A DNA stretch of 64,000 bases from Cyanobacteria bacterium auto_48_18 (GCA_036170915.1 JAVHQC010000034.1:1-64000); one strand, 5' to 3'. Shown: positions 5,019-51,531, counted from the first letter of the stretch. Numbers and translations are program-made. Notes: generated by a model from the sequence alone, not told the origin.

Positions 5019-7433
5019 CTATAAATCCGATTGTCGTTGTCGATCCTTGATCGACTCAAAAGATAGGGGCACGGTGACATCACGTATTCGCTTTTTTAAT
5101 TCAACTATTTGTCCATATGAAAAAATTCCATCTGGCAAAGCAAGACTATTCAAGTTTTTCATCGTCAGCAAAGCTGGTCGGCATCCGGCTGTGAGACCAG
5201 TGCAAGTTGTTATGTTTAGGTTTCGCAGATTTTTTGCGGCTAAAAGTTCAAGTTTATGATCCGTCATTTGGACACTACGCAGTGATAGTTCTTCTAAATT
5301 TTCGATAGTGGCTATCTGTTTGCAATCGAAGTCTGAAATCGGAGTGCTTCTCAAGGACAGTGATTTCATTTTTTCGCTGTGAGTTAATTTTTCGAGCACG
5401 GTTGACGCATTTGAGCAATAACGAATTTCTAATTTTCGCAGCTGCGGCAGTATTTTGCATCCGACGAACTCTGCAATTGATTTTGGATTGGCCAGCGAAA
5501 TTGTGAAGTCCTCTAGCTTAGTAAGTCTATCGAGTCGGGCAAAATCTACCTCTTCTGAATCAAATAGATCCAGGGTTTTAAGAGAGGTAAGTTTTCCTAT
5601 TTGGTTCAATAACTCAGGGCTGCAATTCCCAGTTGGCAAACCAATTCCTTGAAGTTCATCTTTGCCAAAAAAGCTTAAAAGTTCAGGAAACTCCTGGACG
5701 ATCTGATTCGCTTGAAGCAAAGGCAGCGAGTTGCAGTTTTGTGCAAGCAAGATTCTCCCTTGAGCGTTTTGATATCTGTAATCGGGAAATTGGATGGTAC
5801 CAAGCGAAAAATCGCTGGGAAAATAGAAGGCTTTTTGCATTCGACCATTCATTTCAACCATCCTGGAATAATTGGCCTTATTCGTTTTTAGAAAAGCTTT
5901 CGCCTTTGTTGAGTCTGAGTCTGCGCCTGAGTCTATTGCTGCACTCGTCGCTGCTTGTCTCTCTAATGCTAAAGCTTCGGCTCTTTCATTAGCCCTTGCT
6001 TTCTCATGAGCGGCCAGAATTTTTGAGTAGTCGTGAACGAAAAAAGTCTGCCAGACATAGAAAATGCCTACTGAAATTCCCGCTAAGCAGATAAAGGCAA
6101 AAATAAGCTTTATCGCAGTTTTACTCTGATTTTCGTCCGCCAGATCAGTTTCCAGCAACTGTTTTGGCGCAGGTAGTTCTGCGGCTACACTTTTGCCATC
6201 TCTGATGCGCTCAAGATCAAGAGCGAGTTCTTTAGCCGATTGATAACGCTGGTTCGGTATTTTAGCCATGCATTTTGCAATGACAAAATCAAAAGGTTTG
6301 AGCAGCGAATTTCCCACAATCTCTGCAACACTGGGCGGCTTATCTTCCTCATGCATGAGCGCAATTTCTACAGCAGAGTCTGCTTCAAAAGGTACAAGGC
6401 CGCTAAGTGTTTCAAAAATGGAGCAACCAACTGAATAGATGTCTGACCGCACGTCCACGTCCTGGCCGTTGCACTGCTCAGGGCTCATGTAGTATGGGCT
6501 GCCAAATATTTCACCCACAGAAGTGAGTTCTTGCTGGCCATCTGCCTTTATTAGCTTGGCGATGCCAAAATCGAGTATTTTGACATCCACTGCGCCGCTC
6601 GCGCTCTTGGAACAAATAAAAATGTTGGCTGGTTTGATATCACGATGGATAATACCGTTGCGATGCGCGTAGGTCAGTCCGTCTAGAACCGCAAGAAATA
6701 TCTCCAGTGTGCGCTCGATTGATTGTGGACCTTCACGAGCCAGAATATCTTCCAGATTACGACCTTCGAGATAATCCATCGAATAATAAAAGACAGACTT
6801 TTGATGAATGCCTAAATCGTAAACACTTACCATACAGGGATGCTTTAGCGATGCCAGAGTTTTAGCTTCGGCCTGGAAACGCATCCAGTATTGCTCGCTC
6901 ACCAGATTGGGTGCTAAAACTTTTAATGCATACCGTTGTTGCATGTTTTTGTGGCTAGCAAGATACACAATTCCCATCCCGCCCTGGCCAATAATCCTTT
7001 CTATTTGAAACGCGCCACCGATGATGGTGCCTGGCCCAATAGGCACTTCTATTTGGCTGCCGTTCATCAATTGAGCTTGCCGACTCTTTGCTAACTGACG
7101 CCTTTGATTTATTCGCACGCTAGTTTGCGTTCGACTATAGTTTTTGGCCTTAGCTGCCGGGTTGTTTTGTGGCCCTCTGCATGTGCATCGCAATTCTTTA
7201 AAGAGAAAGGCGGTCATTGATCCGACCTTTTGTACTTCTGATTTCGATTTCCCGCAGCGTTGGCAAATCGTTACTGCTTTAACCTTACTCTCAGGGTCTC
7301 GGGAAAGGCGGAGGTCGCGCTGACGTTTTTTCTCACACTGGCAAAAATTATGTTGAAAGAAATAAGACGTGATCGAGCCAGCCCTTTCGGAAGGCTCGGG
7401 TTTACCGCAACTTTTACAAAGTGGTTTGCTCAT
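5019..7433 (-). CDS. K1: receptor-like Ser/Thr kinase (2x Cys repeat - kinase - TM - LRR)
   Basis: GQGGMG, ALK, HRDIKPAN, DFG, GSPYYMSPE; TM LIFAFICLAGISVGIFYVW; LRR-like C-terminus. Start set at MSKPLC by comparison with paralogs. Confidence 0.92.
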   Translation of the reverse strand: MSKPLCKSCGKPEPSERAGSITSYFFQHNFCQCEKKRQRDLRLSRDPESKVKAVTICQRCGKSKSEVQKVGSMTAFLFKELRCTCRGPQNNPAAKAKNYSRTQTSVRINQRRQLAKSRQAQLMNGSQIEVPIGPGTIIGGAFQIERIIGQGGMGIVYLASHKNMQQRYALKVLAPNLVSEQYWMRFQAEAKTLASLKHPCMVSVYDLGIHQKSVFYYSMDYLEGRNLEDILAREGPQSIERTLEIFLAVLDGLTYAHRNGIIHRDIKPANIFICSKSASGAVDVKILDFGIAKLIKADGQQELTSVGEIFGSPYYMSPEQCNGQDVDVRSDIYSVGCSIFETLSGLVPFEADSAVEIALMHEEDKPPSVAEIVGNSLLKPFDFVIAKCMAKIPNQRYQSAKELALDLERIRDGKSVAAELPAPKQLLETDLADENQSKTAIKLIFAFICLAGISVGIFYVWQTFFVHDYSKILAAHEKARANERAEALALERQAATSAAIDSGADSDSTKAKAFLKTNKANYSRMVEMNGRMQKAFYFPSDFSLGTIQFPDYRYQNAQGRILLAQNCNSLPLLQANQIVQEFPELLSFFGKDELQGIGLPTGNCSPELLNQIGKLTSLKTLDLFDSEEVDFARLDRLTKLEDFTISLANPKSIAEFVGCKILPQLRKLEIRYCSNASTVLEKLTHSEKMKSLSLRSTPISDFDCKQIATIENLEELSLRSVQMTDHKLELLAAKNLRNLNITTCTGLTAGCRPALLTMKNLNSLALPDGIFSYGQIVELKKRIRDVTVPLSFESIKDRQRQSDL

Positions 7434-32663: not shown

Positions 32664-32665
32664 AT

Positions 32666-34858: not shown

Positions 34859-37186
34859 TCACTCTTTTGTTGTCGGAGACGCTGGATACTCAAAGCGGTC
34901 GAGAAGGCCGGCGTCTTTCTCATGGTCTGGCTTCATAACTGGCGGTCTCAGCGTCTTTAGTTGTTTGAATTTGCGCAATACTTTCATATAGTCGGTGTCT
35001 AATTTGCAATTATCATAGAATTTGAGCACGCGTAATTGTTTGGCCGGCAAAAATTGCTCCAACTCGCTGTTGTGGATAGTCAAACTGGCCAGCTCAAGCA
35101 TTCTTAGATGTTCTAATTTGGCGATGGTGGCCCATTGTTTTTTAGAGAGCGTAAATTCATACATAAAAAGGTCTCGTACCTGGTTGCCTTTTTGCCAGGC
35201 TTGCAGAATTGGTTCGATACTGGCTGGGCCAGCTATGCTGACAGAAGTCCACTGAGGCAAATATTTACATTTTGCCACTAGTGTGTAATCGGTGTCAGAG
35301 CCAAACTTAATTGACTTTAGATTTGGTAGATCATCTAGATAGTGAACGTCACCCGGTAACATCGGAGTATCGCGGAGGCTTAAATCGACAAGTGATGTTA
35401 ATTTAGATACGTAAGGCAGTAGGTCTTCGCTCAGGCCATCAACTGTCCAGAAGTCCAGGCCTTGCAGATCGTCTTTTCGAAAATGAGCGAGCAAATGTGG
35501 TCGGCTGGCAAACTCGCTACTGGCCTTAAGGTTAATTGCGCTATCCGCCGGTACATCGCAAAGGCCCTGGGCTTTCAATTTTATCTCTTTGCCGCGTTCG
35601 AAGTACGAAATTGTTCCCAGGCTAAAATCCTCAGGAAATTCAAATCGTTTGACCCGGCGCCCATCTATGCTAATCAGCCTTGAATAATATTGTGGTTTCT
35701 TTTGAACCTCTGCTGGAGGCTGTGCTGGCGCTTTGGGTGCTGAGAAATAACTCCAGGCAAATGCTGCCACACCTGCTAACAACAAAGTAACAATACCGGC
35801 CACCAGAAGTGGTGCGCCGGTATTATCAGAATTGGAACGTGAGTGAGAATTAGACTTTTTAGAAGATGGTTTAGACCCATTCGCAAGAGCCGCTTTTCTG
35901 GCTGCTACCGGTGCATAGTCGGCAACACTCTTGCCCTCTTTGATACGTTGTAAATCAAGGGCCATTTCTTTGGCCGATTGATAACGCTCACGGGGCAGTT
36001 TGGCCAGGCACTTACCAATAACAATATCGAAGCCGTCAGGAAATTTTGTGCTGGTAACTTCAGACAGAAGTGGTGGCTCTTGCTCTTCGTGCATCATGGC
36101 AATTTCTAAAGACGAATCGGCCTCAAAGGGCACAAAACCAGTAAGCGTCTCAAATAGCGAGCAACCTACCGAATAAATATCTGAGCGCAAATCTATTTCA
36201 CCACCAGTGCATTGCTCTGGGCTCATGTAATAAGGGCTGCCAAAAATCTCTCCCACCTGGGTTAGTTTCTGCCCTTCATCAATTTTGAGCAACTTAGAAA
36301 TACCGAAATCGAGAATTTTAACTGAGGCAGCACTGATGGTGGCACCATGGCAAATGAAAATGTTGGCCGGCTTGATGTCGCGGTGCACAATACCATTGCG
36401 GTGGGCATATGCCAGGCCGTCTAATACTGCCAGAAATACTTCGATTGACTCTTTAACTGTCAGAGGTCCATCGTCAAACAAAATTTGCTCTAAATTGCGA
36501 CCTTGCAAATAATCCATGGAGTAGTAAAAAACAGACTTTTCATGAATGCCGAGATCGTACACGTTGACAAGATTGGGGTGATTTAAAGCGGCCAATATTT
36601 TCGCTTCTGTTTGAAAGCGTTGCCAGTACGTGGCGCTTATCAGACTCGGTTCAAGAATTTTCAAGGCGAACTGGCGCCGCAAAGAAAGGTGTTCGGCTAG
36701 GTAAATTACACCCATGGCGCCAGCACCGATTTCTTTTTCTATCTTAAATGTGCCACCAATAATAGTGCCTGGGCCGATGACAATATTGCCATTGGCAGTG
36801 GGCAGCATTGGTTTAAATGTTTGGGTTAATGGTCGCTTCTGTCGAGTACGCTCACCTGAGCGCGTGCGGCTCTTGCCCGTACCACTTGTACCCGTACTAT
36901 TTTTGCCGCCGCGGGAACGAGCAAATTTTGGCTCCAGGCACTGGCAACGCAGTTCTTTAAATAAATAAGCGGTAAACGAGCCAACTTTTTGATCCACCGG
37001 GCACGATTTTCCGCAATTAAGGCAAATGCGATTGTCGCTTTGTTTTGTATCGCTGGTATTGCCGACAGCATTACCAGCGCCGTTCTTGTGGCATTGACAA
37101 TATTTTTCTTGAAAGAAATAAGACGTGAGCGAACCAGCTCTGGTAGAGGCTTGTGATTTTCCGCAGGTTCGGCAAATTACACTCAT
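34859..37186 (-). CDS. K7: receptor-like Ser/Thr kinase with LRR ectodomain
   Basis: GAGAMG, HRDIKPAN, DFG; TM; LRR. Start set at MSVICR. Confidence 0.92.
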   Translation of the reverse strand: MSVICRTCGKSQASTRAGSLTSYFFQEKYCQCHKNGAGNAVGNTSDTKQSDNRICLNCGKSCPVDQKVGSFTAYLFKELRCQCLEPKFARSRGGKNSTGTSGTGKSRTRSGERTRQKRPLTQTFKPMLPTANGNIVIGPGTIIGGTFKIEKEIGAGAMGVIYLAEHLSLRRQFALKILEPSLISATYWQRFQTEAKILAALNHPNLVNVYDLGIHEKSVFYYSMDYLQGRNLEQILFDDGPLTVKESIEVFLAVLDGLAYAHRNGIVHRDIKPANIFICHGATISAASVKILDFGISKLLKIDEGQKLTQVGEIFGSPYYMSPEQCTGGEIDLRSDIYSVGCSLFETLTGFVPFEADSSLEIAMMHEEQEPPLLSEVTSTKFPDGFDIVIGKCLAKLPRERYQSAKEMALDLQRIKEGKSVADYAPVAARKAALANGSKPSSKKSNSHSRSNSDNTGAPLLVAGIVTLLLAGVAAFAWSYFSAPKAPAQPPAEVQKKPQYYSRLISIDGRRVKRFEFPEDFSLGTISYFERGKEIKLKAQGLCDVPADSAINLKASSEFASRPHLLAHFRKDDLQGLDFWTVDGLSEDLLPYVSKLTSLVDLSLRDTPMLPGDVHYLDDLPNLKSIKFGSDTDYTLVAKCKYLPQWTSVSIAGPASIEPILQAWQKGNQVRDLFMYEFTLSKKQWATIAKLEHLRMLELASLTIHNSELEQFLPAKQLRVLKFYDNCKLDTDYMKVLRKFKQLKTLRPPVMKPDHEKDAGLLDRFEYPASPTTKE

Positions 37187-37199: not shown

Positions 37200-39536
37200 T
37201 CATGAATCAATACTCTTTAGTTTTGGCAGCGCTTTTTTTAGTTCTTCTACATCGCTTTCATTCAAAAGATCTGGAGGCAATATTAGATCAGTCAGATTCT
37301 TGAATAGCTTCAGCTCTTTCAGGCAGGTTCTATCTAGGTTTAACGCGGTGCGGATGGTTAAATGGGTGAGATTTTTTAGGGCTGATAATTGGTGCAAATC
37401 ATCGCTGTCGAGAGGAACACTACGGAAACTCAAACTTCTCAAATTTTCCCATTTTGATATGGTTGCAATGTCGGCTTTTGGCAGTTTCATATAACCAAGC
37501 CCCAATACGATTAAATCATGATTATTGCTCAGCTTGTCTAAAATTGGAGTGATGTTGCCCACGTGCCTCAAACTTATGGCCTCTATGCGTCTTATGGTTT
37601 GGCTTTCTGCTAAAGGAACAATTGCACTCTGGAGCGGATCTATTTTAAGACTGCGCAAATGCACAAGCTCGTCTAAATATTTGACACTATCAGCTGTAAA
37701 TTCTGTGTCGGTCATTTCCAGGGTTATAAGCGATTTCAGTCTGGCGACGTAGGGCATTATGGTATCGCTATTGGGCTCTACAGTTGGCAGCTCCAGGTGT
37801 GTGAGATCGTTTGGTGCAAAATAAGAAAGCAGTTGAGGATGCCCTGAGACATTGGCGTTGGCATATAGATTGAGCTCTTGATTGGCTGATAGATTTACTT
37901 GCCCTGTGGCCTGTATTCCGTTAATTGTGCCAAGAGAAAAGGCTATGGGGAAATAGAATATTTTGTTCAGTTTTTCGTCTGTACGCAATTTGGCTGCATA
38001 ATTTTGAGGATGGCTGGCGAGAAATTTCTTTATCTCAGTAGCTTCTGGCCCGTCTATTTCTGAGAAAATCGATAGAGATTTGTTCCCGATGTCCTTCAAA
38101 ACCCCAGATCGCTCTTGTGTATAGGGCGTGTGTATTTTAGGAGCTGAAGGTGCAGGCCCTCGGTTCAAGCTGAACCAGAAAATGCCTGCGGACGCCGAGC
38201 TCATTAGCACCACAAATAGACCGACTAAAACTACAGGAAAATTCGTAGCTTCATTTTTGGCGTCATGGAGATCTTCTTTTGTCACTATGGGTGGTGCCAT
38301 TACTGCCTTGTCGTCTCTTGCCCGCTCAAGGTCAAGAGCCAGTTCTTTAGCCGACTGGTAGCGGTCGCGCGGTAATTTTGCCAGACATTTAGCAATAATC
38401 TGCTCAAAGGAAGGTAAATCAAGATCGCTAACATCTAAAAGTAGGGGCGGCTCCTTTTCTTGATGCATCAGTCCAGTATCAACAGACGACTTACCGTCAA
38501 AAGGCACACAGCCGGTGAGCGTCTCAAACATAGAGCAACCCACCGAATAGATGTCCGACCGCAAGTCAACAGTGCTGCCCATGCACTGTTCGGGGCTCAT
38601 ATAGTATGGGCTGCCAAAAATCTCTCCGGCGGCAGTCAGCTGTTGATTGTCGTGGGTAAGCTTCGAGATGCCGAAATCAAGAATTTTTACTTGCTCATTA
38701 TCGCTGCCGGCTTTCGCGCAAAGGAAAATATTGGCGGGTTTAATGTCACGGTGTACGATACCGTTGCGATGCGCGTAGGCCAGTCCATCAAGCACTTGCA
38801 GGAATATATCAATGGTGTGCTCTGGTGATAGTGGGCCTTCTCTCACTAGCCGATCTTCTAAATTTTCACCCTGCAAATAGTCCATTGAGTAATAAAAAAT
38901 AGAATTCTGGTGAATGCCCAGATCATATACATTGACTAAATTTGGATGTTTAAGGGCCGCCAGGGTTTTTGCTTCAGATTGAAAACGTAGCCAATAGGTG
39001 TCGCTCACTAAATTAGGAGCGAGAATTTTCAAAGCGAATTTGCGATGCAAAGCCAGGTGCTCTGCCAGGTAGACAACCCCCATACCGCCTTCACCAATTA
39101 GAGACTCAATTTTAAACGTGCCACCAATAACAGTGCCAATGCCTATAGCTTCGGCGCTGCCTGAATTTTCTAGTTGCTCTCTGACATTGTGGGCTAATTT
39201 TCGCCTGATTGTGTTTCTGGCGCTTGTGGTGCTGTGAGAGTTTTTGCCTCTGTGCGACTGAGCAAACTTTGGCGAAGTGCATTGGCAGCGCAATTCTTTA
39301 AAAAGAAAAGCTGTGAAAGATCCGGCTTTGCGATCTCGCGGCCGCGACTTGCCACATTTGAGGCAAATTTGGTTATTTTCTGCCAGGCCCGATTGACGGT
39401 TTCTATTGGGCGCATCTTTGACGTTATTATTGCACTGACAAAAGTTGTGTTGAAAAAAATAGCCTGTTATAGACCCGGCCCTACCGGTCGCCGGAGGCTT
39501 ACCGCAGCTTTGACAAAGTGTAGGCTGGTCGTTCAT
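37200..39536 (-). CDS. K8: receptor-like Ser/Thr kinase with LRR ectodomain
   Basis: Same architecture; motifs intact. Confidence 0.93.
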   Translation of the reverse strand: MNDQPTLCQSCGKPPATGRAGSITGYFFQHNFCQCNNNVKDAPNRNRQSGLAENNQICLKCGKSRPRDRKAGSFTAFLFKELRCQCTSPKFAQSHRGKNSHSTTSARNTIRRKLAHNVREQLENSGSAEAIGIGTVIGGTFKIESLIGEGGMGVVYLAEHLALHRKFALKILAPNLVSDTYWLRFQSEAKTLAALKHPNLVNVYDLGIHQNSIFYYSMDYLQGENLEDRLVREGPLSPEHTIDIFLQVLDGLAYAHRNGIVHRDIKPANIFLCAKAGSDNEQVKILDFGISKLTHDNQQLTAAGEIFGSPYYMSPEQCMGSTVDLRSDIYSVGCSMFETLTGCVPFDGKSSVDTGLMHQEKEPPLLLDVSDLDLPSFEQIIAKCLAKLPRDRYQSAKELALDLERARDDKAVMAPPIVTKEDLHDAKNEATNFPVVLVGLFVVLMSSASAGIFWFSLNRGPAPSAPKIHTPYTQERSGVLKDIGNKSLSIFSEIDGPEATEIKKFLASHPQNYAAKLRTDEKLNKIFYFPIAFSLGTINGIQATGQVNLSANQELNLYANANVSGHPQLLSYFAPNDLTHLELPTVEPNSDTIMPYVARLKSLITLEMTDTEFTADSVKYLDELVHLRSLKIDPLQSAIVPLAESQTIRRIEAISLRHVGNITPILDKLSNNHDLIVLGLGYMKLPKADIATISKWENLRSLSFRSVPLDSDDLHQLSALKNLTHLTIRTALNLDRTCLKELKLFKNLTDLILPPDLLNESDVEELKKALPKLKSIDS

Positions 39537-39566: not shown

Positions 39567-41933
39567 CTAGTCTATCCTTTTTAAACGCGGGAGTGCGCCA
39601 TAAAGTTCTTTTTCATACGCATCTTCTACAAGCTGATCTGGCAACACCAGCCTTTGCAATTTGGAGAATTTTTTGATGCTTACAAGGCAGCCGGCATCAA
39701 GGTTTGTATTGCGAGCTATGTTTAACAGGTCCAGGTCTTTTAGGGTCGTCAATTTTTCCAGATCGTCATTGGTGATCAGCGTGCTTGTTATGCTCAGCTT
39801 TTTCAAGTTGTGCATCCCGGCTAGCTTGACAATGTCTGCTCGGTTGAACTGACAACCTTGAAGCGAAAGCTCGATTAAATCGGGGCATTTAGCCAATTTG
39901 TCCAATATAGGTGAAATGCTCTGGTTGCTGTTAATTTCCAGCCTCTGCAGCTGTTGCCAAATTTTTGATTTGGCGATGGCCTCAGGGTCCATGGTCCAGG
40001 CGATGATCATGAGCCTTCTTAAACTCTGCATACGATCCAGGTAGACCACGTCATCAGGTAGAAAAATCATTTCGCTGATGCGCAGATGGGTCAGAGAAGT
40101 AAATTTAGCTAGACGGGGCAAGAAGTCGCTGGATTTCTTACCCGCAGCTCGAAGTTCAATGCTTATCAGATCATCGTTTTGAAAATAATCAAGCAATTGT
40201 GGATGTTCGCCCACGCTAATGCTGGCCATTAACGCCACTGACTTTTCTGGTGGAATTATGCATTTACCTAGAGCAGGTGTTTCAGGAGTACCTGATGGAT
40301 AAAAAGTTAAAGCACCAAGTGAAAAGTCACGAGGAAAGTAGAAGGCGCGCTCTATCTTGCCATTGACGATGCTCTCTTTTTTATAATTTGCTGGTTTACT
40401 TTGCAGGAAAGCTTCTACTTTGGCGCTGTCCGGATCGCTATCGATGTCTTTTTCGGTATTTTCCAGCGCTTTGGCATTGAGAACTGCTGCGTCATCTAAA
40501 TCTTTGCCAAGAGAATTTGACCCTTTTAGGGGTGTAGCTATTTCGCTTGTGGTATTGATAAATATAAAATAGGCAATACCAGCTGCCAGAGCTACCGATA
40601 TGGTTGAAATTGTAATTAATGCAACCGGAATCGAGTTTTTCACTAGCTTTTCAGCGCCGCCGCTGTCGTCTTCAAGCCTTGCAGTTGAGGGCAAAGCGGC
40701 AATGCTTTTACCGGCTTTGATGCGTTGGAGATCCAGAGCCAGTTCTCTTGCTGATTGATAGCGGTCGGCGGGCAATTTAGCCAGGCATTTATCAATGACA
40801 ATTTCAATTGCTTCTGGAATTTGCTTTTTGCTTACTTGCGAAATCAGTGGTGGCAATTCTTCTTCATGAAGCAAGCCAATTTCAAGGGCAGACCCACCAT
40901 CAAAAGGCACATAGCCACTGAGAGTTTCGAACATAGAACAGCCTACAGAATAAATATCAGATCGCGCGTCCACCGCTTTACCCGTGCATTGCTCGGGGCT
41001 CATGTAGTATGGGCTACCAAATACTTCACCGGCGGCGGTGAGAGTTTGAGCTTCACTGCCAACGGTAACTGATTTGGAAATGCCAAAATCTAGAATCTTT
41101 ACCTCGAGTGCGCTGGCGTTGTTTGAGCAAATGAAAATATTTGCTGGTTTAATATCCCGGTGAATAATGCCATGCCTATGGGCATAGGAGAGGCCATCGA
41201 GTACCAGGAGGAATATGTCAATTGTATAACTCAGGCTTTGGGCGCCCTCTTCTGCCAATATTTCCTCGAGATTACTTCCTTGAAGATAATCCATCGAATA
41301 GTAAAAAACAGATTTTTCGTGAATGCCCAGATCGTAAACATTTACCAGGCTCGAATGGTTTAGCGCAGCAAGCGTCTTAGCTTCAGATTGAAAACGTAGC
41401 CAGTATTGCTCACTAAGGCCTGGCGAAAGTATTTTCAAGGCAAATTTTTGCTGCATGGCCAGGTGCTGGGCCAGATATACAACCCCCATGCCACCTTCGC
41501 CTATGATCTTTTCGATTTTGAAAGTGCCACCAATGACAGTGCCGGGCCCAATGGCTGTTTGTGTACCAGCATTTTCTAGCTGGGCCGCAACGCTTCTGGC
41601 CAGGCGTCGGCGTTTAGTGTAACGTTCTGAAGAACTGGTGCTGCTAAATTTTCTATTCTGGGATGTGGTGGCAAATCGTGGTGTCACGCAGTGGCAGCGG
41701 AGCTCTTTAAAGAGAAAGGCTGTAAAAGAGCCGGCTTTTCTCTCATGGGGCCGTGACTTGCTGCAATTGAGGCAGACTTGCTGGCGACCACCTAAATTAG
41801 AAGTTTGCTTTAAGTCAGAGTGCTCATTCTTTTCATGGCATCGGCAATAATTATGCTGAAAAAAGTATGACGTAATTGAACCGGCTCTGCTGCTTGGTTC
41901 TGGTTTACCGCAATTTGGACAATTGTTAGGCAT
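39567..41933 (-). CDS. K9: receptor-like Ser/Thr kinase with LRR ectodomain
   Basis: Same architecture; motifs intact. Confidence 0.93.
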   Translation of the reverse strand: MPNNCPNCGKPEPSSRAGSITSYFFQHNYCRCHEKNEHSDLKQTSNLGGRQQVCLNCSKSRPHERKAGSFTAFLFKELRCHCVTPRFATTSQNRKFSSTSSSERYTKRRRLARSVAAQLENAGTQTAIGPGTVIGGTFKIEKIIGEGGMGVVYLAQHLAMQQKFALKILSPGLSEQYWLRFQSEAKTLAALNHSSLVNVYDLGIHEKSVFYYSMDYLQGSNLEEILAEEGAQSLSYTIDIFLLVLDGLSYAHRHGIIHRDIKPANIFICSNNASALEVKILDFGISKSVTVGSEAQTLTAAGEVFGSPYYMSPEQCTGKAVDARSDIYSVGCSMFETLSGYVPFDGGSALEIGLLHEEELPPLISQVSKKQIPEAIEIVIDKCLAKLPADRYQSARELALDLQRIKAGKSIAALPSTARLEDDSGGAEKLVKNSIPVALITISTISVALAAGIAYFIFINTTSEIATPLKGSNSLGKDLDDAAVLNAKALENTEKDIDSDPDSAKVEAFLQSKPANYKKESIVNGKIERAFYFPRDFSLGALTFYPSGTPETPALGKCIIPPEKSVALMASISVGEHPQLLDYFQNDDLISIELRAAGKKSSDFLPRLAKFTSLTHLRISEMIFLPDDVVYLDRMQSLRRLMIIAWTMDPEAIAKSKIWQQLQRLEINSNQSISPILDKLAKCPDLIELSLQGCQFNRADIVKLAGMHNLKKLSITSTLITNDDLEKLTTLKDLDLLNIARNTNLDAGCLVSIKKFSKLQRLVLPDQLVEDAYEKELYGALPRLKRID

Positions 41934-41940: not shown

Positions 41941-44289
41941 CTACAAAATCACCATCACTAATTTTGGCATAGTTCTTTGCAGTTCTTGATCATCGCTGGG
42001 TTCTAGAATGTCTCCGGCGATCACAAGCGTTTTCAGATGGTCAAACTTTTTTATAGAGTGCACGCATGCCCTGGTCAATTTGGTTGCCTGGCCAAGATTC
42101 AAATATGTTAGTTGTTTCGCACCAGTCAGCTGTTCTAAGTTTGCATCGGTAAGAAGTATATTCGTCAGTGTTAGTTTTGTCAGATTTTTTACGCTGCAAA
42201 TAGAATCAATATCCTCTGAGGCTAGTGTGGTATCGCGCAAACCTAAACTCCAGAGCACTTCGCTATTTTTCAGTGCTCTCAATATGGGTGAGACGTTTTT
42301 CGTATGCGCCAGAGTAAGCATTTGTAATTGAAGCAAGATAGATGAGTTTGCCATTGGCTCAACTGCTTCTGGCAAAAGTTCTACGTCTAATATGCGTAAT
42401 TTTTTTAAGCTACTCAAAATTTCGATGTTTTTTTTATCCAGTGGTACATAGAGTAATTCTAGATCGGTCAGGCTACCAAGCTTTGCAATATATGGCACAA
42501 CGTCAGGCTTTTGGCCGCTCACAGCACCAAATCTGAGTGTGGTTAGGTCGTCAGCCTTAAAGTATTGCAGCAACTCTGGTCTAGTGATGGTGGCCTGACC
42601 GGCAGTGAACATTGCAGGCGCGTCAGCCGGAATGATTATTTCGCCTGATGCTGGTCGAGTATCACCATAGTCAAACTCACCGAGAGAGAATGTTTTTGGG
42701 AACGAAAATTTCTTTTTCTTTTCTCCATTGACAGTAATGACAGAAGAATAGTCTGACGGTTTGCTGAGCAAGTAATCTTTAATTAGACTTGAGTTCGTTT
42801 CTTCGCCGCCCTTACCTAGAAAGTCTAAAGAAGCAGAGTCAAGGTTGTCCCTCATGGGCAAATCGGCTACATCTTTTGAAAACTTGTGCTCGGCTACGGC
42901 TTTAGAATGACTATTGGTAAAAGTATTCCAGACAAAAAGCAAAGCGGTCACCGTGCAAGCGCTCACTGCCACCATTGCTAAAATTGGCACAAGCGCCGGT
43001 CTGGCCCCCACTGGTTCACCGGTGTGGGCAACCGCTTCACTGGCAGAGCGTCTCGCGTGGGCAATGTCTTTGCCTTCCTTGATGCGCTCTAAATCAAGAG
43101 CCAACTCTTTAGCCGATTGATAGCGGTCATGGGGAAGTTTGGCCAGGCATTTATCAATTACATAATCGATTGACTGCGGCAGTGGAGTTTGAGTTTTTGT
43201 CACTGCTGATAGTATTGGTGGCAGATTTTCTTGATGCATGAGAGCGATTTCAAAAGCTGTTTTCGCTTCGAAAGGCACAAAGCCGCTTAGTGTTTCAAAC
43301 ATGGTGCAGCCAACGGCATAAATGTCTGAGCGCGCATCTACCGCCTCTCCGTTACATTGCTCAGGGCTCATATAATAAGGACTGCCGAAAATTTCGCCCA
43401 CAGCGGTGAGCTGCTGAATTTCATCTGCTTTAGTCAATTTAGAGATGCCAAAGTCAAGAATTTTTATTTCGTTGTCATCACAGAGAAAAATATTGGCCGG
43501 CTTGATATCGCGGTGAATGATACCGTTGCGATGTGCGTAGGCCAGACCTTCGAGTACTGCTAGAAAAATTTCAATAGTTCGATTCAGGCTTAATGCGCCT
43601 TCCCGGGTTAGGACGTCTTCGAGATTTTCACCCTCGAGAAAATCCATAGAGTAATAGAACACTGATTCTGCGTGAATGCCAAGATCATAAACTTTAACCA
43701 GATTTGCATGACTGAGTGCAGACAATATTTTGGCCTCGCTTTGAAAGCGTAACCAGAGTTTTTCACTGGTCAACCCTGCTCTCAGCACTTTAAGCGCTAC
43801 CACCCGCTGCAGCGCTATGTGCGTGGCCAGATATACCACTCCCATACCACCTTCACCAATAACAGAATTGACTTTGAAAGTGCCACCAATTATAGTGCCG
43901 GGCGAAATTTCGGCCAGGCTTTGCTCGTGGACGAGTTTAGAGAGTATGTCTTTTGCCTGGCTGCGTTTTTGTTCGATTCTTTCTCGCGTACCTGTACGAC
44001 TGAAGTTGTCAGTTGAAATTGCAAATTTTGGATGGGCGCATTGACAGCGCAGTTCTTTAAAGAGGAAACCTGTAAATGAGCCTGCTTTTTGCTCAAGTGG
44101 CCTCGATTTGCCACAATTGACGCAGATCTGATTGATGGCCGTTGTGCCACCAGCTTTATTCTTTCGGTCACCACTATTTTCTTGCTCAATTTTGCATCGG
44201 CAATAATTATGCTGAAAAAAGTATGACGTGATTGAACCGGCCCTGATGCTTGGTTCTGGTTTACCGCAAGTTTTGCAAATCACGTCCAT
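41941..44289 (-). CDS. K10: receptor-like Ser/Thr kinase with LRR ectodomain
   Basis: Same architecture; motifs intact. Confidence 0.93.
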   Translation of the reverse strand: MDVICKTCGKPEPSIRAGSITSYFFQHNYCRCKIEQENSGDRKNKAGGTTAINQICVNCGKSRPLEQKAGSFTGFLFKELRCQCAHPKFAISTDNFSRTGTRERIEQKRSQAKDILSKLVHEQSLAEISPGTIIGGTFKVNSVIGEGGMGVVYLATHIALQRVVALKVLRAGLTSEKLWLRFQSEAKILSALSHANLVKVYDLGIHAESVFYYSMDFLEGENLEDVLTREGALSLNRTIEIFLAVLEGLAYAHRNGIIHRDIKPANIFLCDDNEIKILDFGISKLTKADEIQQLTAVGEIFGSPYYMSPEQCNGEAVDARSDIYAVGCTMFETLSGFVPFEAKTAFEIALMHQENLPPILSAVTKTQTPLPQSIDYVIDKCLAKLPHDRYQSAKELALDLERIKEGKDIAHARRSASEAVAHTGEPVGARPALVPILAMVAVSACTVTALLFVWNTFTNSHSKAVAEHKFSKDVADLPMRDNLDSASLDFLGKGGEETNSSLIKDYLLSKPSDYSSVITVNGEKKKKFSFPKTFSLGEFDYGDTRPASGEIIIPADAPAMFTAGQATITRPELLQYFKADDLTTLRFGAVSGQKPDVVPYIAKLGSLTDLELLYVPLDKKNIEILSSLKKLRILDVELLPEAVEPMANSSILLQLQMLTLAHTKNVSPILRALKNSEVLWSLGLRDTTLASEDIDSICSVKNLTKLTLTNILLTDANLEQLTGAKQLTYLNLGQATKLTRACVHSIKKFDHLKTLVIAGDILEPSDDQELQRTMPKLVMVIL

Positions 44290-44293: not shown

Positions 44294-46627
44294 TCACTTT
44301 AACATTTCGACTAATGAATTAGAGGCGCCTTCTGTCAGGCGTTTGAGTTTGGGCAGCGCCTTTCTCAGACGCGCGCGCTCCGCTGCTGTTAAATTGTTCG
44401 ATATTTCAAGCGCTTCCAGGTTCTTGAATTTTTCTAACTCTTTAATGCAGTCAGCATCAAGAGGAAAACCAGCATCAAATTTCAAATTGGTGATTGATGC
44501 CTTGGACAACTGCGAAAGCTCGGTAGCGGAAAAGGCCATGTCTTTGCACGTGAGAGTGACAAGACTTTTTAGTGCCACCAGATGTTCTATATCTTCGCTG
44601 GTCAGTTCGGTGCCAACGAGATCTAGCTCGCGCAAATGGCTATGCGCCGCCAGCGCTCGCAAGAGAGGAGTAATTGACGGGGTGCCTTTGAGGCGCAATG
44701 TACGCCATTGCGGCAAGCTCTTGCAAGTTGCCAGTGCCTCATAATCATTACCACCGGTCAAATGCAGCGATTGCAACTTAGGCAGGTTATTTAGCCTGGC
44801 CACGTCGTCTCTATCTAGCCCTTCGCCTTGTAAGCCGATATACTTCAGGCTGGTCAATTTTTCAATATACGGTAAGAGCAATTTATTATTTGCCCTGACG
44901 CTCGAAAATCCGATACCCTCAAGGTCATCTTTTTTAAAAAACTTTAGCAGCTGCGGATGATCCGCCACTGTTTGACCGCAATAGAGATTGACCACAAGAC
45001 CTTGCGGTATTTTGCAGACACCTTTGGCCGGCATTGACACCGACTGGCCGGGTGGAAAATAGGTCAACGTGCCTAGAGAATAATTGAGGGGGAAAGAAAA
45101 GATTTTAAGATGCTTGCCGTTCTCCTCGACCATCTTGCTGTAGGCCTCGGGCGGCATGTGAATATCTTCGGCAGGCAAAATCTTTTCATCAGGAACGACT
45201 GACTGTAAGCGATCTAACTCTCGCTTCGATTGCTCAAATTTAGGATTTTTCGTTGCCTGTTTTACCGGGCTTGGGTTGAAATAAGTAAACCAGATTGTTA
45301 GTGCCACCAGGCTCAGTATCAGTACTGCTGCTAGTGCTCCTAATACTATGGTGCTGCGACTTACATCTGCTTCACTGGCGACTGCAGGCCTCGCTGACGC
45401 CAGTGGGGCGCTCAGTTCTTTACCCTCTTTAATTCGTTCAAGATCAAGGGCCAGTTCTTTAGCTGATTGATAGCGATTGCGTGGCAGCTTGGCCATGCAC
45501 TTTTCTATTAGTTGATCGATTGAATCAGGCAGTGCAATATCAGTCAAATCAGACAGTAGTGGTGGCTGGTTTTCTTGATGCATCAAGCCGATTTCAACCG
45601 CTGATTCTGCTTCAAAGGGAACAAATCCTGAAAGTGTTTCAAAAATGGCGCAACCCACTGCATAAATGTCTGAGCGCGCGTCCACTGACGTACCCATGCA
45701 TTGTTCGGGGCTCATATAAAAGGGGCTGCCAAAAACTTCGCCGGCTGCTGTTAGTTGCTGTGCCTGATCATCACGGCTGACCAGTTTGGCTATGCCGAAA
45801 TCGAGAATTTTCACTTCTGCTGCAAGAGCATTGGTGGCACTACTACATATGAAAATATTTGCGGGTTTGATATCGCGGTGAATAATGCCATTGCGATGAG
45901 CATAAGCGAGGCCTTCAAGCACACTGATGAAAATGTCTATGGTGCGCTCAAGAGTTTGAGGGCCGTCTTTGGCTAACAAATCTTCGAGCGTCTGCCCTTG
46001 AAGGTAGTCCATAGAGTAGTAAATAACCGAATTTTCATGGATGCCCAGGTCATAAACATTGACCAGATTCTGATGCTTCAGATTTGCAAGGGTCTTTGCC
46101 TCGCTTTGAAAACGCTTCCAAAAATGCTCACTAACCAGGCTTGGTGCCAGAACCTTGAGCGCGAACTTTTGTGGAAGAGTGCGATGTTGTGCCAGGTAAA
46201 CCGTACCCATGCCACCCACGCCAATAATCGATTCGATTTTAAAGGTGCCACCAATAATAGTGCCTGGGTTAAGTGGTTTTGCCTCGGCACGACTAAATTC
46301 AAGCTTGTCACCCATTCTGTCTGCGGTTCGTGTGCGGCCCAGAAGGTTTTTTTGATTAACGGCAAATTTGGGTCTGCTGCACTGGCAGCGCAGTTCTTTA
46401 AATAGAAATGAAGTGAATGACCCCACCTTTTTATCTTTTGGGCTCGACTTACCGCAATTAAGGCAAATTTGACTGTCTTGCGGGGTCGCCGAGCCGCGGG
46501 TGAGCCGCAAGCCGCGCTGCTTGTTCTTCTCACACTGGCAGTAGTTATGTTCAAAGAAATAAGCGGTAATGGAGCCGGCCCTGGTGGTCGACCTCGATTT
46601 GCCGCAACTTTGACAGAGGGTAGTCAT
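44294..46627 (-). CDS. K11: receptor-like Ser/Thr kinase with LRR ectodomain
   Basis: Same architecture; motifs intact. Confidence 0.93.
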   Translation of the reverse strand: MTTLCQSCGKSRSTTRAGSITAYFFEHNYCQCEKNKQRGLRLTRGSATPQDSQICLNCGKSSPKDKKVGSFTSFLFKELRCQCSRPKFAVNQKNLLGRTRTADRMGDKLEFSRAEAKPLNPGTIIGGTFKIESIIGVGGMGTVYLAQHRTLPQKFALKVLAPSLVSEHFWKRFQSEAKTLANLKHQNLVNVYDLGIHENSVIYYSMDYLQGQTLEDLLAKDGPQTLERTIDIFISVLEGLAYAHRNGIIHRDIKPANIFICSSATNALAAEVKILDFGIAKLVSRDDQAQQLTAAGEVFGSPFYMSPEQCMGTSVDARSDIYAVGCAIFETLSGFVPFEAESAVEIGLMHQENQPPLLSDLTDIALPDSIDQLIEKCMAKLPRNRYQSAKELALDLERIKEGKELSAPLASARPAVASEADVSRSTIVLGALAAVLILSLVALTIWFTYFNPSPVKQATKNPKFEQSKRELDRLQSVVPDEKILPAEDIHMPPEAYSKMVEENGKHLKIFSFPLNYSLGTLTYFPPGQSVSMPAKGVCKIPQGLVVNLYCGQTVADHPQLLKFFKKDDLEGIGFSSVRANNKLLLPYIEKLTSLKYIGLQGEGLDRDDVARLNNLPKLQSLHLTGGNDYEALATCKSLPQWRTLRLKGTPSITPLLRALAAHSHLRELDLVGTELTSEDIEHLVALKSLVTLTCKDMAFSATELSQLSKASITNLKFDAGFPLDADCIKELEKFKNLEALEISNNLTAAERARLRKALPKLKRLTEGASNSLVEMLK

Positions 46628-46718: not shown

Positions 46719-49133
46719 CTACTCCAAGGCTTGTGAATCGGTTGCTGAAGGCTCAATTTTTTTCAGTGAAGGAATGGATTTATACAAAGATTTTTTATAA
46801 CTATCGTTATCGAAATACTCTTGCGGTATCGTCAATAATTGAAGGTGTTTGAACTTTGTCAAAGTCGAAAGACACTGCGGATTTAACTTGCACTGAATAA
46901 TTTCGAGATGGTTTAGTCCAGGTAATTTTGCCAGTTGTTCCATTACGGCATTGCTTATGACCATACGTCTTAGCGTGATAAAACTCAGTGATTTGCAGGT
47001 GCTCAGGCTGTCTATGTCAGCTGCGGTCAATTTGACTTTTTCTAAAGTTAGAGCTTCGAGCTTACTGCTGCCACTAAGAGCTTTCAAAGTTTGAGGCAAA
47101 CTGTGACTAACTTCCAGGTACAAATACGATAGTTGCGGTAAAAGCTTGCACTTTGAAAATGATTTGTCTTCAAGTTGTGATGAGCTCATAGTCAATGATT
47201 CAAGCTTACGTAAACGGTTTAGATAAGCCACGTCTTCAGGGCGAAAATTTATGCCGTCCAGCCGCAGCCTGGTCATAGCAGTAAACTTGGCTATATGTGG
47301 CATCGGTGTACTTTCGGCGAATTTCGATACGCTAATTGAAAGTCCAGCCAGCTCGTCAACTTGAAATAGCTGAAGCAGCTGAGGAAAACCAGCTACGGCG
47401 TCGCTCGCGTCTAGAATATGCGGACCACTGTCTGGCAGAATCACATTACCCCGGGCTTGAACCGCCTGCCCCGAGTGAGCAGAGCTGGTCAGGCTGCCTA
47501 AAGAAAACTGCTGGGGGAAGTAATAAGCTTTTTGCAGTCTATTGTCTATGCGCACCATGCGTGAATAACTAACAGGTTTTGTGCGTAGATAGGCATTTAC
47601 TTTTCGCGTCAGGCCTTCATCGTCTAAGGAAGAATCTATTTTTGGTTCAACACCCGAGGCTTCGCTATCACTTAAGGTGTCTTGAATTTTACTAGCTATT
47701 TCTGGTTCTATTGGTGCAGACATATTGATGAAATAAATACCGGTGAAAGTTGCCCCAATTAGTGCCACCACCAGTACAACCAGGCCTATCATAGCGGCAG
47801 GAATTAAGCTGCCCTGGCGCTCAGAACTCTGCGCGCCTTCATTTTCATAATGGCGATTGCGAACGGTTGTTGTGGCAAAGCTGGCTAACTCTTTACCGGC
47901 TTTAATGCGCTCTAGATCGAGGGCCAGCTCTTTTGCTGTCTGGTAACGATCTTGAGGTAATTTTGCCAGGCATCTAGACACAACCAGATCGATTGACTCT
48001 GGTAAATCTGCTGTTGCTAAGTCAGAAAGCAATGGAGGTTCGTCTTCTTCGTGCTTCATGGCAATTTCAAGAGAAGATTGACCATCGAAAGGCACATAAC
48101 CACTCAGAGTTTCAAAAATCGAACAGCCTACAGAATATAAGTCTGACCGTATGTCGGCTTCGCCGCCGGTGCACTGCTCTGGGCTCATATAAAATGGGCT
48201 GCCAATAATTTGGCCCACTGCCGTTAGTTTTTGCGCCTCATCTCGATTGGTCAATTTTGCAATGCCAAAATCAAGAATTTTTATTGTTAGTAGAGCGCTG
48301 GCTTCAGTCTGAGCGAGAAAAATATTGGCAGGCTTGATATCGCGATGGATGATACCGTGGCGGTGAGCGTATGCAAGGCCGTCTAGCACTGCTATAAAAA
48401 TATCAAGGGTAGCCGTGAGCGTCAGCGGCCCGTCTTGCGCGAGAATATCTTCTAGATTGCGGCCTTGCAGATAATCCATCGAATAGTAATAGACACTTTG
48501 ATCGTGTATGCCTAAGTCATAGACAGTTACCAGGTTTGGATGTTTGAGCGCTCCTAAAGTTTTCGCCTCAGATTGAAAGCGTAACCAGAAATGTTCACTT
48601 ATTAAGGACGGTGACAGAACTTTGAGCGCATAAACTTTATTCATCGCTAAATGTTTTGTCAGGTAAACAGTGCCCATGCCGCCGGTGCCTATAATTTTGA
48701 TGATTTCAAATGTGCCACCGATAACGGTGCCCGCGGCAATTGGTCTTAACTGCTGATCGCCTGAAATCTCAGACTTCTTCTTTAGCTGGCTGCGTTCTGC
48801 AGTTTGTGTACGCCCGAAGCTATTCTTTCTATGCTTAACCAGCTTCGGATTCTTAGCCAGCTTCGGATTTTCGCACTGGCAGCGCAATTCTTTAAATAGG
48901 AAGGCTGTAAATGAGCCAATTTTTTCTTCAGTTGGTCGCGATTTTCCGCAATTCAGGCAAATTTGTGCTGCGTCTTTTTGGTCATTTCTATTACGCTCAG
49001 ATAAATTACTTTCAACACCATCAGCGGCCGAGCGGCATCGGCAATAGTTGTGCTGAAAAAAATAGGAAGTAATTGACCCGGCTCTATCTGCTAAGGGTGA
49101 TTTGCCGCACTGCGGGCAGAGGCTATCAGTCAT
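46719..49133 (-). CDS. K12: receptor-like Ser/Thr kinase with LRR ectodomain
   Basis: Same architecture; motifs intact. Confidence 0.93.
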   Translation of the reverse strand: MTDSLCPQCGKSPLADRAGSITSYFFQHNYCRCRSAADGVESNLSERNRNDQKDAAQICLNCGKSRPTEEKIGSFTAFLFKELRCQCENPKLAKNPKLVKHRKNSFGRTQTAERSQLKKKSEISGDQQLRPIAAGTVIGGTFEIIKIIGTGGMGTVYLTKHLAMNKVYALKVLSPSLISEHFWLRFQSEAKTLGALKHPNLVTVYDLGIHDQSVYYYSMDYLQGRNLEDILAQDGPLTLTATLDIFIAVLDGLAYAHRHGIIHRDIKPANIFLAQTEASALLTIKILDFGIAKLTNRDEAQKLTAVGQIIGSPFYMSPEQCTGGEADIRSDLYSVGCSIFETLSGYVPFDGQSSLEIAMKHEEDEPPLLSDLATADLPESIDLVVSRCLAKLPQDRYQTAKELALDLERIKAGKELASFATTTVRNRHYENEGAQSSERQGSLIPAAMIGLVVLVVALIGATFTGIYFINMSAPIEPEIASKIQDTLSDSEASGVEPKIDSSLDDEGLTRKVNAYLRTKPVSYSRMVRIDNRLQKAYYFPQQFSLGSLTSSAHSGQAVQARGNVILPDSGPHILDASDAVAGFPQLLQLFQVDELAGLSISVSKFAESTPMPHIAKFTAMTRLRLDGINFRPEDVAYLNRLRKLESLTMSSSQLEDKSFSKCKLLPQLSYLYLEVSHSLPQTLKALSGSSKLEALTLEKVKLTAADIDSLSTCKSLSFITLRRMVISNAVMEQLAKLPGLNHLEIIQCKLNPQCLSTLTKFKHLQLLTIPQEYFDNDSYKKSLYKSIPSLKKIEPSATDSQALE

Positions 49134-49143: not shown

Positions 49144-51531
49144 TTAAAACTGGGCCTTGTCTGCCTGGCGTATGCGCTTTAGCTTTGGCAAGGCGCGAAA
49201 TAATTGTTGCTCTTGCATGGCATCGAAAAGTCCGTCAGGCAAAAGTAGAGTTTTTAGATTTTTGAACTTTTTCAAAGCTTCAAGACACGAGCTGTCGAGC
49301 CTTGAACCCTGGTGTAGAGCAAGTGACTTCAGTCTCGGTAATTGTGATAGCTTATCGAGGGTTTCTTTGGTGAGAGTCATATTCTTGAAAGATAGACTTT
49401 TTAAATATTCTATTGATGCAATATTTTTCACATCAGCTTCTGTGAGCACAATATGATCCAGGTCAAGGCAGTCTAGGTTCGTGCTTGATGACAGCCGGGC
49501 CAACACTTCTGAAATATTAGACGGCCCGCGGAGACTGAGGCGAGAAAGCTGAGTTAGCATTTTGGTTTTGGCAAAATAAGACTGCCCTGCAGGAGTCAAT
49601 TCGATATGCAGTGCTGCAAGTTTAGTCAGCGGTTTAAGATATGGCAAGTCGGCATATTCGAAGCTGATGCCAGGCAGACTTAAATAATCAAGCTCGGTCA
49701 TTCTCGACACGAAAGGCATGACTCTGGTGCTGTCGCCTTTGCCTATAATAATTCCTTTTAAATCGTCTTTATAAAACTTCTTCAGCAGTTCAGGGAACTC
49801 GCCTACAAGCGGATTAGTGTTGAGGCTGAGGTAAGCGTCAGCCGGGACGATGCACTCGCCCCGAGCGTCAACGGTGTAGGGCATGCCTTCTTTAAAATAG
49901 GTCAAGGTGCCGATAGAAAAGCTTGGTGAAAAAGAGAACACTTTCAGTTGCTTTTCGTTCGAGCGCACTGTGTTTATGAGATAAGGTGCGGCTGATTTGG
50001 AGAATTCTTTTGCGCCAATACCATCGTCATCAACCACCGCTGGTAGCGTCAGGCTTGGACTTTTGGCAGTATCTTCCGCTTGTTCAATTCTCGGCACAAG
50101 TTCTGGTTGAGGAGCGTGATCGCGAGTAAAAACCCAGATTAATGCGGCACTGAGCGGCAACGAAAGCACGGCGGCAAAAACCAGCAATGTTGCGGGCGAA
50201 AGAATATTGGTGGTGTGCTCACCGCTGTTACCATTCTCATGAACCCGGGCCGATTGCTTACCACTCAATGATGAAAAAGCAGTTACTTCTTTGCCTTGTT
50301 TAATACGCTCAAGATCAAGAGCTAATTCTTTAGCAGACTGGTAACGATCACGGGGCAGCTTGGCCAGACATTTGGCAATGACTAAATCTATGGATGCCGG
50401 AAATTCTTTATCACTGACGGCGGAAAGATTAGGCGGATCTTTTTCTTCATGCATCAATGCAATTTCTACAGATGAATCTGCCTCAAAAGGAACATAACCG
50501 GTAAGGGTTTCAAAAATGGAGCAGCCCACAGAATACAGATCTGAGCGCGCGTCTACCGTCTCGCCCATGCATTGTTCTGGGCTCATATAAAAAGGGCTGC
50601 CGAAAACCTCACCTACGGCTGTAAGCTGCTGTGAGTCATCACCTTCGCTCACCAGTTTCGAAATGCCAAAATCGAGTATTTTAATTGCTGGCAAGACGCC
50701 GGCGGTTTCAGACGCACAAATAAAGATATTGGCAGGTTTGATATCACGGTGCACAATGCGCTGCCGGTGTGCGTATGCCAGTGCGTCAAGCACAGGCAGA
50801 AAGATCTCAATGGTATGCTCCAGGCTCTGGGCACCGTCCTGCGCCAAGATGTCTTCCAGGTTGCGACCTTTCAGATAATCCATAGAGTAGTAAAAAAGTG
50901 TTTTCTCGTGCACACCCAGATCGTAAACGTTAACCAGGTTGGGGTGATTTAAAGCTGCCAGTATTTTTGCTTCTGCCTGAAAGCGTAGCCAGTATTCTTC
51001 GCTGACAAAATCAGGGGCCAATATTTTTAGAGCATACTTTTTTTGCATTGCCTGGTGGTAGGCAAGATAGACAACACCCATACCACCTTCGCCAATCATT
51101 GATTCAATTTTGAACGTGCCACCAATAACGGTGCCCGGACGCAACGGCGTACCAGCTTCAATGCTTGCATTTTCTAGTTGCGCCTTTAAAATTTCAGTTG
51201 AGCGTCTTCTTTGTTTGATACGCTCGGCCGTGAGCGTGCGGCTGTTGTCAGACTTACTTTCGGTGCGGGTGCGAAACTTGGGCCGGGCGCACTGGCATCG
51301 CAGTTCTTTAAAAAGAAATGCCGTGAATGAGCCGGCCTTTTGGCCGGTGGGGCGGGACTTACCGCATTTTAAACAAATGGCTTCTTCGCGAACAATTGTC
51401 GCCTGCGACTTTTTTGACGATACTTCTTTTTGACATTGGCAGAAATTGTGCTGAAAGAAATAAGAAGTCATGGAACCAGCGCGAGCGGTGGCTTCAGGTT
51501 TGCCGCAGTTATGACAAAGATCTTTCGCCAT
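49144..51531 (-). CDS. K13: receptor-like Ser/Thr kinase with LRR ectodomain
   Basis: Same architecture; motifs intact. Confidence 0.93.
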   Translation of the reverse strand: MAKDLCHNCGKPEATARAGSMTSYFFQHNFCQCQKEVSSKKSQATIVREEAICLKCGKSRPTGQKAGSFTAFLFKELRCQCARPKFRTRTESKSDNSRTLTAERIKQRRRSTEILKAQLENASIEAGTPLRPGTVIGGTFKIESMIGEGGMGVVYLAYHQAMQKKYALKILAPDFVSEEYWLRFQAEAKILAALNHPNLVNVYDLGVHEKTLFYYSMDYLKGRNLEDILAQDGAQSLEHTIEIFLPVLDALAYAHRQRIVHRDIKPANIFICASETAGVLPAIKILDFGISKLVSEGDDSQQLTAVGEVFGSPFYMSPEQCMGETVDARSDLYSVGCSIFETLTGYVPFEADSSVEIALMHEEKDPPNLSAVSDKEFPASIDLVIAKCLAKLPRDRYQSAKELALDLERIKQGKEVTAFSSLSGKQSARVHENGNSGEHTTNILSPATLLVFAAVLSLPLSAALIWVFTRDHAPQPELVPRIEQAEDTAKSPSLTLPAVVDDDGIGAKEFSKSAAPYLINTVRSNEKQLKVFSFSPSFSIGTLTYFKEGMPYTVDARGECIVPADAYLSLNTNPLVGEFPELLKKFYKDDLKGIIIGKGDSTRVMPFVSRMTELDYLSLPGISFEYADLPYLKPLTKLAALHIELTPAGQSYFAKTKMLTQLSRLSLRGPSNISEVLARLSSSTNLDCLDLDHIVLTEADVKNIASIEYLKSLSFKNMTLTKETLDKLSQLPRLKSLALHQGSRLDSSCLEALKKFKNLKTLLLPDGLFDAMQEQQLFRALPKLKRIRQADKAQF

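Follow-up and report, generated by a model that had tools for sequence, protein, structure and literature searches.

Thirteen intact genes in a 64,000-nucleotide stretch from Cyanobacteria bacterium auto_48_18 (GCA_036170915.1 JAVHQC010000034.1:1-64000; hereafter the window) probably encode single-pass inner-membrane receptor Ser/Thr kinases. They would belong to an Obscuribacterales-specific repertoire that combines stable, distinct specificities with converging outputs and episodic turnover. Expanded membrane kinomes are known from bacteria, and their ligands mostly are not. The present case would place the plant receptor-kinase pattern in the non-photosynthetic sister class of the cyanobacteria.

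The 13 paralogs (K01–K13) occupy the minus strand in blocks of one, five and seven genes (Table 1), as the initial annotation had described them, and none of the 13 frames is interrupted. Measured from the likely start codon, the proteins are 775–804 aa long, and intergenic gaps within blocks range from -4 to 91 bp. Blocks 2 and 3 are separated by ThiF-rhodanese, BNR-repeat and Het-C/VWA7_N genes, conserved synteny anchors that show no functional link to the kinases. The Het-C/VWA7_N-like gene (33832-34833, plus strand) lies within the array, encodes a secreted protein and is syntenic in the relatives L102 and L103. Between blocks 1 and 2, a multi-TM protein of 978 aa that matches VIT weakly (9068-12004, minus strand) has an 86% identical counterpart in L101, where its place between kinase blocks is kept. 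Contigs of one sequencing run, possibly that of the source sample, tile positions 32500-52400 with zero differences at a flat depth of 12-13, so that block 3 is no collapsed-repeat artefact; the tiling contigs overlap by fewer than 31 bases, and the joins are thus not strictly bridged. Among sequencing runs, one DNA dataset, possibly the source, was listed as containing the sequence, and no RNA dataset was. Promoter and terminator scans of block 3 gave no more than the shuffled expectation.

Table 1. Features of the kinase array and its flanks, numbered from the first nucleotide of the window.
Feature	Position	Strand	Block	Length (aa)	Remarks
K01	5019..7433	-	1	804	Cys2-kinase-TM-cap-LRR
K02	19280..21658	-	2	792
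K02 single transmembrane helix	20294..20350	-			aa 437-455; predicted by hydropathy
K02 kinase domain	20432..21286	-			Hanks-type Ser/Thr kinase, by motif
K02 tandem Cys repeats	21407..21646	-			Each CxxCGK-x8-9-GSxT-xx-[FL]F-x4-CxC
K03	21672..24032	-	2	786	Mosaic
K04	24093..26468	-	2	791
K05	26474..28846	-	2	790	Ortholog in L101 (77%)
K06	28843..31221	-	2	792	L017/L077 ortholog lacks one LRR repeat
K06 ectodomain	28846..29700	-			Beta-rich cap and 8 beta-alpha LRRs; AlphaFold2 model
ThiF-rhodanese, BNR-repeat and Het-C/VWA7_N genes	31221..34833				Between blocks 2 and 3
K07	34859..37186	-	3	775
K08	37200..39536	-	3	778
K09	39567..41933	-	3	788
K10	41941..44289	-	3	782	Nearest gene in place in L102/L103 broken into three ORFs
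K11	44294..46627	-	3	777
K12	46719..49133	-	3	804
K13	49144..51531	-	3	795	Orthologs in L011/L102 (75%) and P0013
DUF4153 membrane protein	51599..53284	-			Upstream synteny anchor of block 3

All 13 proteins match the Pfam Pkinase profile (E 1e-47 to 1e-53) and keep the Gly-rich loop, the ALK Lys, HRDIKPAN, DFG and GSPxYMSPE, which bears out the annotated catalytic motifs; judged by these motifs, they are catalytically complete Hanks-type kinases. One strong hydrophobic 19-mer per protein follows the kinase (mean KD 1.81-2.85, against at most 1.69 for the next best), consistent with the single TM helix first proposed, and an N-terminal hydrophobic segment is found in none of the 13. The contrast drawn at the outset between a conserved cytoplasmic half and divergent LRRs is also borne out, mean pairwise identity among the 13 falling from 71% for the kinase and 57% for the Cys region to 31% for the cap, 29% for the LRR and 15% for the stalk.

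Charge bias around the helix was uninformative on topology. This genome holds 54 cap/LRR ORFs, 18 of them kinase-less, and 15 of these 18 begin with a hydrophobic segment that in 13 cases looks by eye like a Sec signal peptide directly before the cap. Since these kinase-less homologs carry signal-like segments and a kinase needs cytoplasmic ATP, we infer that the cap and LRR of the array proteins lie in the periplasm; the class has been described as diderm (PMC4040986). The other three kinase-less proteins have no hydrophobic segment, so the cap/LRR module occurs in the cytoplasm also. Kinase-less cap+LRR proteins of ~310-350 aa with signal-peptide-like N-termini are encoded at 13 loci (for example C4:20232, C11:18637, C22:415144 and C36:66452), and they are possible co-receptors or decoys.

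Pfam recognizes the LRRs weakly, in 12 of the 13 proteins and mostly below cut-off, with no match in K07. The AlphaFold check suggested by the initial annotation was made on the K06 ectodomain (78-row alignment) and gave a confident model (pLDDT 94.7, pTM 0.91) of an FBXL/Skp2-like solenoid. Its best fold matches are Skp2 (E 1.2e-7; Z 17.0) and FBXL2 (Z 18.6; rmsd 3.5 over 247 residues), compared with Z 13.8 for the ectodomain of the plant receptor TDR.

Counts in the genome and genus indicate that a lineage-wide family clusters most densely in this array. This genome has 88 kinase-profile ORFs, among which 36 also have an LRR and 15 of those carry Cys repeats as well; the array contributes 13 of the 36 kinase+LRR genes. 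Cap+LRR matches, with at most 59 candidates scored, number at least 40-61 per genome in 15 genomes of the genus, with none in 13 genomes of other orders. The Cys module is present in all 14 congeners (5-16 matches each), in 21 of 24 family members and in two of three sister-family genomes, it is absent from 13 genomes belonging to other orders of the class, and records of Cys-repeat loci are mostly Obscuribacter, Obscuribacteraceae or Obscuribacterales. First-look counts of kinase candidates, of which the best 47 were scored, reach 92-131 per genome in the genus versus 0-5 in the 13 genomes of other orders. The candidate receptor repertoire of the initial annotation therefore stands as a set of single-pass kinases with variable, probably exported LRRs, but as a lineage-wide trait and not as a stand-alone array. 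A clade uniting the 13 kinases is recovered at 0.92 in FastTree and its base is not resolved in IQ-TREE (support 16), for which reason we do not claim strict monophyly.

Domain architecture varies across the wider family. The best 150 of 445 Cys-repeat representatives include 86 kinase-TM-LRR proteins and 25 kinase-TM proteins with other or unrecognised ectodomains (TPR and Sel1 confirmed). A further 19 show no kinase match, and the remaining 20 are fragments or have different forms. Short fragments make up most of the 19, which also include three full-length Cys2-TM-LRR or Cys2-TM-Sel1 proteins. At G000 C16:56390-58506 a kinase-TM-LRR gene is split into two ORFs, and at G000 C22:143868-147176 a kinase-TM gene without ectodomain stands beside an intact one; both are probably decaying family members.

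The N-terminal region contains two copies per protein of the pattern CxxCGK-x8-10-GSxT-xx-[FL]F-x4-CxC. GSxT occurs in all 26 repeats of the window, and position T+3 is F or L. In an alignment of 90 rows, Ser71 and six of the eight Cys never vary, and conservation is at least 90% at the remaining two Cys and at Ser19, Thr21 and Thr73. No Pfam family matches above cut-off (weak zinc-ribbon matches in 36 of 90 members at E up to 0.1), PDB sequences give no match at E up to 1, and a fold search returned a single match at Z 2.1, with Atlas matches below 0.8. The structure model is weak (pTM 0.37) and a poor guide to Thr exposure. Going by the Cys pattern, the repeat is a putative Zn-binding module, and the GSxT Thr is a candidate phospho-docking site for FHA proteins; the combination would be a signalling module of which we found no earlier description. 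There is precedent for such docking in PknG, where N-terminal autophosphorylated Thr dock an FHA substrate (PMC8546545), and FHA binding is modulated by the pT+3 residue (PMC5549992).

The genome offers seven FHA matches, six with the GR motif, one PP2C_2 match, 12 sigma-70 region 2 matches and 74 HATPase matches. Given 88 kinase-profile ORFs and few phospho-Thr readers, we propose that many inputs feed few outputs. At G000 C25:56692-60142 a PP2C-FHA-kinase gene cluster houses the sole PP2C_2 match, and the FHA protein of this cluster carries a Cys motif at its N-terminus. At G000 C32:43822-54103, two related FHA genes, one of them without the GR motif, lie directly downstream of the gene for a multi-TM kinase that has one Cys-GSxT repeat. 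The full-length, kinase-less proteins P0186, P0245 (from a cluster of 10) and P0246 consist of two Cys-GSxT repeats, a TM helix and an LRR or Sel1 ectodomain. With the repeats as the sole inner part of such receptors, this suggests that the repeat signals on its own. In this genome every one of the 16 Cys-repeat ORFs has a kinase, and a search of 41 genomes at E 1e-30 did not recover the kinase-less P0245 with the query used.

The locus evolves by birth and death, and its kinases and ectodomains have been shuffled. Relatives differ in gene number, the comparison that the initial annotation had put forward. Between the same flanks, the place of the seven genes here is taken in L102 and L103 by a single intact K13 ortholog and two genes that are each broken into three ORFs. 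In L077 a small lipoprotein gene comes immediately after the K06 ortholog, and K05-K02 are absent. In L101 one 707-aa paralog without about four repeats follows the K05 ortholog, in the place of three genes here. One relative keeps orthologs of six block-3 genes (K07, K08, K09, K11, K12 and K13), at 90-96% identity in the kinase and 78-88% in the LRR. Shuffling is visible in K03, whose kinase is 82-85% like those of K02, K04 and K05, whereas its ectodomain is only 27-28% like theirs and groups with K01; K03 and K04 share a 114-bp tract of identical DNA (permutation p 0.0002). The same discordance separates P0008 from K02 (94% kinase, 29% ectodomain) and P0027 from L060 (91% and 34%). Kinase and ectodomain trees mostly agree elsewhere in the genus, and orthologous groups span several species.

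Pooled over 35 hand-picked closest pairs, mostly orthologs with three paralogous or uncertain, dN/dS is 0.095 in the kinase, 0.091 in the Cys region, 0.27 in the cap and 0.256 in the LRR; within the outer part it is 0.342 on the concave face, 0.12 at buried LRR sites and 0.38 in the juxtamembrane/TM/stalk region. Because the last evolves as fast as the concave face, part of the ectodomain divergence may reflect relaxed constraint. Among the paralogs, no surface diverges more than the concave LRR face: its 32 positions are 12.4% identical versus 23.0% at 86 other polar LRR columns (13 paralogs; permutation p 0.0001), a contrast inflated by structurally conserved polar positions among the control columns. 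Between closest pairs, the concave excess over other exposed sites is OR 1.15 (0.97-1.37; heterogeneity p 0.048), pooled over 34 pairs after removal of one with a large deletion.

Codon models place concave omega at 0.13-0.36, significantly below 1, in four of seven groups, and at 0.53, 0.81 and 1.13, not different from 1, in the other three, which include K02/K04/K05. Kinase omega is 0.04-0.09 in all groups. The comparison of concave face and kinase raised at the outset thus came out in part: the concave face evolves faster, but no group is significantly above 1, on only 32 codons. Uniform purifying selection on orthologs, which had been named as evidence against a receptor repertoire, is seen to some extent, many cross-species orthologs being constrained, concave face included. 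The simplest reading is a burst of concave change after duplication or in some lineages, followed by conservation; ongoing positive selection on the concave face is neither shown nor excluded.

We suggest the following scheme for how these receptors may work. The concave face of each paralog would bind a different protein or envelope ligand, and ligand binding would cluster the kinases and lead to autophosphorylation. Clustering followed by autophosphorylation is the logic of PknB-type kinases. The Thr of each Zn-type Cys repeat would then be phosphorylated and recruit one of the few FHA proteins, such that many receptor inputs would converge on few FHA outputs. Following duplication, the concave face would change fast, most receptors afterwards coming under purifying selection. 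The array itself includes no FHA, phosphatase or sigma gene, and a Pfam search of 89 of the 172 neighbour ORFs at 16 loci revealed no recurring FHA, phosphatase, ECF sigma or defence gene.

A stable repertoire fits better than arms-race immunity, since orthologs are mostly under purifying selection and no omega is significantly above 1. We therefore hold it unlikely that the family serves non-self surveillance, in which phage, predator or competitor proteins (such as periplasm-entering toxins) would trigger defence and an arms race would drive variation. Such surveillance would account for the gains, losses and pseudogenes seen at a single locus, for LRR repeat deletions in intact genes and for the three groups whose concave omega is indistinguishable from 1. 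It is also favoured by the concave excess in K02/K04 (OR 4.3, p 0.001) and L063/L087 (OR 3.9, p 0.002), both uncorrected among 37 pairs, and in the six block-3 ortholog pairs, which differ at 37/191 concave versus 97/750 other sites (p 0.027, driven by K07); LRR immunity proteins do exist in polymorphic toxin systems (PMC3482391). Counter to this, the pooled concave excess is small, between K13 and its ortholog the concave face is better conserved than the rest (differences at 6/31 versus 37/85 sites), and many orthologous groups persist across the genus. The K02 ectodomain and Cys domain match none of the PADLOC 2023 families, and a prokaryotic Argonaute pair near K01 sits beyond a tRNA-Leu gene and looks like an unrelated island. 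With no defence-family match and no recurring defence neighbour, the phage or non-self recognition suggested by the initial annotation found no direct support; it is possible for a fast-changing subset and unsupported for the family. A broader version seems distinctly unlikely as a whole: a plant-like periplasmic network, independently built, in which dozens of LRR receptor kinases work beside secreted LRR proteins (co-receptors or decoys) and kinase-less receptors with the Cys-GSxT repeat as their sole cytoplasmic part, that repeat being a new phospho-docking module phosphorylated in cis or trans and read by FHA proteins, and the fastest-changing members sensing foreign phage, predator or competitor proteins.

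Alternatively, the LRRs might bind the cell's own periplasmic proteins (secreted cap+LRR proteins, TPR proteins, lipoproteins) and in this way adjust growth, the assembly of the envelope or contact between cells. Such self-monitoring agrees with the purifying selection seen on most orthologs and with a genome rich in secreted repeat proteins, about 13 exported LRRs among them as possible co-receptors, and comparable expansions in Planctomycetota and Myxobacteria accompany complex cell biology (PMC11032199). An essential role fits poorly with the loss of six of seven genes in a close relative, and as a separate account we think it very unlikely; it is compatible with a stable receptor repertoire, for which it names a ligand class. 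Highly improbable, in our judgement, is a mostly neutral expansion, with redundant kinases multiplying at a duplication-prone locus and LRR divergence reflecting weak constraint. The stalk and TM do diverge as fast as the concave face, and pseudogenes in relatives and gene-conversion tracts point the same way. Yet all 13 frames are intact though synonymous sites are near saturation between most paralogs, the LRR and its buried sites are constrained (dN/dS 0.26 and 0.12), and each of the 15 genus genomes maintains its dozens of cap+LRR matches.

Among openly accessible papers we found none on this architecture or on an Obscuribacterales kinome, in agreement with the initial annotation, which knew of no characterised system of this kind. 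The closest described case is the kinase-TM-TPR/WD40 expansions of Planctomycetota (PMC11032199), where Ca. Uabimicrobium amorphum alone has 525 kinases; the same source cites tandem duplicates in Myxobacteria too. Shared with Planctomycetota are the N-terminal cytoplasmic kinase, one TM, a C-terminal periplasmic repeat domain and lineage expansion, whereas the repeats there are TPR or WD40 and those here form an FBXL-like capped LRR, with Cys-GSxT repeats at the N-terminus. The main text of PMC11032199 contains none of the terms 'LRR', 'leucine', 'zinc' or 'Melainabacteria', and its supplementary tables may list LRR kinases; the accessible portions of PMC8195603 and PMC4040986 hold nothing on these kinases. 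PknB/Stk1 PASTA kinases and PknD-type kinase-TM-NHL proteins likewise join an N-in kinase, one TM helix and an extracytoplasmic sensor (PMC1262709). PknB_PASTA_kin (NF033483) is the best NCBIfam match here, over the kinase only, at 293-306 bits against a cut-off of 450 (four of the 13). Unlike PknB/Stk1, the present family has dozens of copies, and none of the 13 has a PASTA domain. A single LRR-bearing kinase was noted in Pseudomonas aeruginosa in 2005 (PMC1262709), so kinase plus LRR has precedent in bacteria. PknG resembles these proteins in that a Cys-rich module and candidate Thr docking sites precede the kinase and FHA partners are encoded in the genome. Its own Cys-rich module is rubredoxin-like, a TPR domain forms its C-terminus and its Thr sites are poorly conserved (PMC8546545); the proteins described here have two CxxC+CxC repeats with GSxT Thr, a TM helix and an LRR, and no TPR. 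A test of the repeats for rubredoxin likeness gave CxxCG twice, each with a CxC partner, and no fold match from the weak model.

The resemblance to plant LRR receptor-like kinases and proteins is analogy, not homology. Tandem arrays, birth and death, a divergent concave face and kinase-less LRR counterparts are common to both. Plant LRR-RLKs have a signal peptide, an N-terminal LRR and a C-terminal kinase. Here, by contrast, the domain order is reversed, there is no signal peptide, the kinase is bacterial and PknB-like, and the LRR is nearest to FBXL2/Skp2. The modular receptor set lends itself to ectodomain-swap screens, and the Cys module, with one predicted phosphosite, is easily tested.

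Two further observations concern other genes. Close to K01, positions 15-3472 of the window (minus strand) encode a long prokaryotic Argonaute (PADLOC pAgo_II, E 1e-254) followed by an Aga_Helical-REase (E 3e-83). A tRNA-Leu at 4434-4518 adjoins the pair, an arrangement that resembles a defence island at a tRNA; a link to the kinase array was considered and rejected, the pair lying beyond the tRNA. Elsewhere, adjacent pairs of soluble atypical kinase-like proteins recur (G000 C8, C25, C26, C29, C34 and C36; L105, L109, L111 and L137), in which one member has DFG and an altered HRD and the other lacks both.
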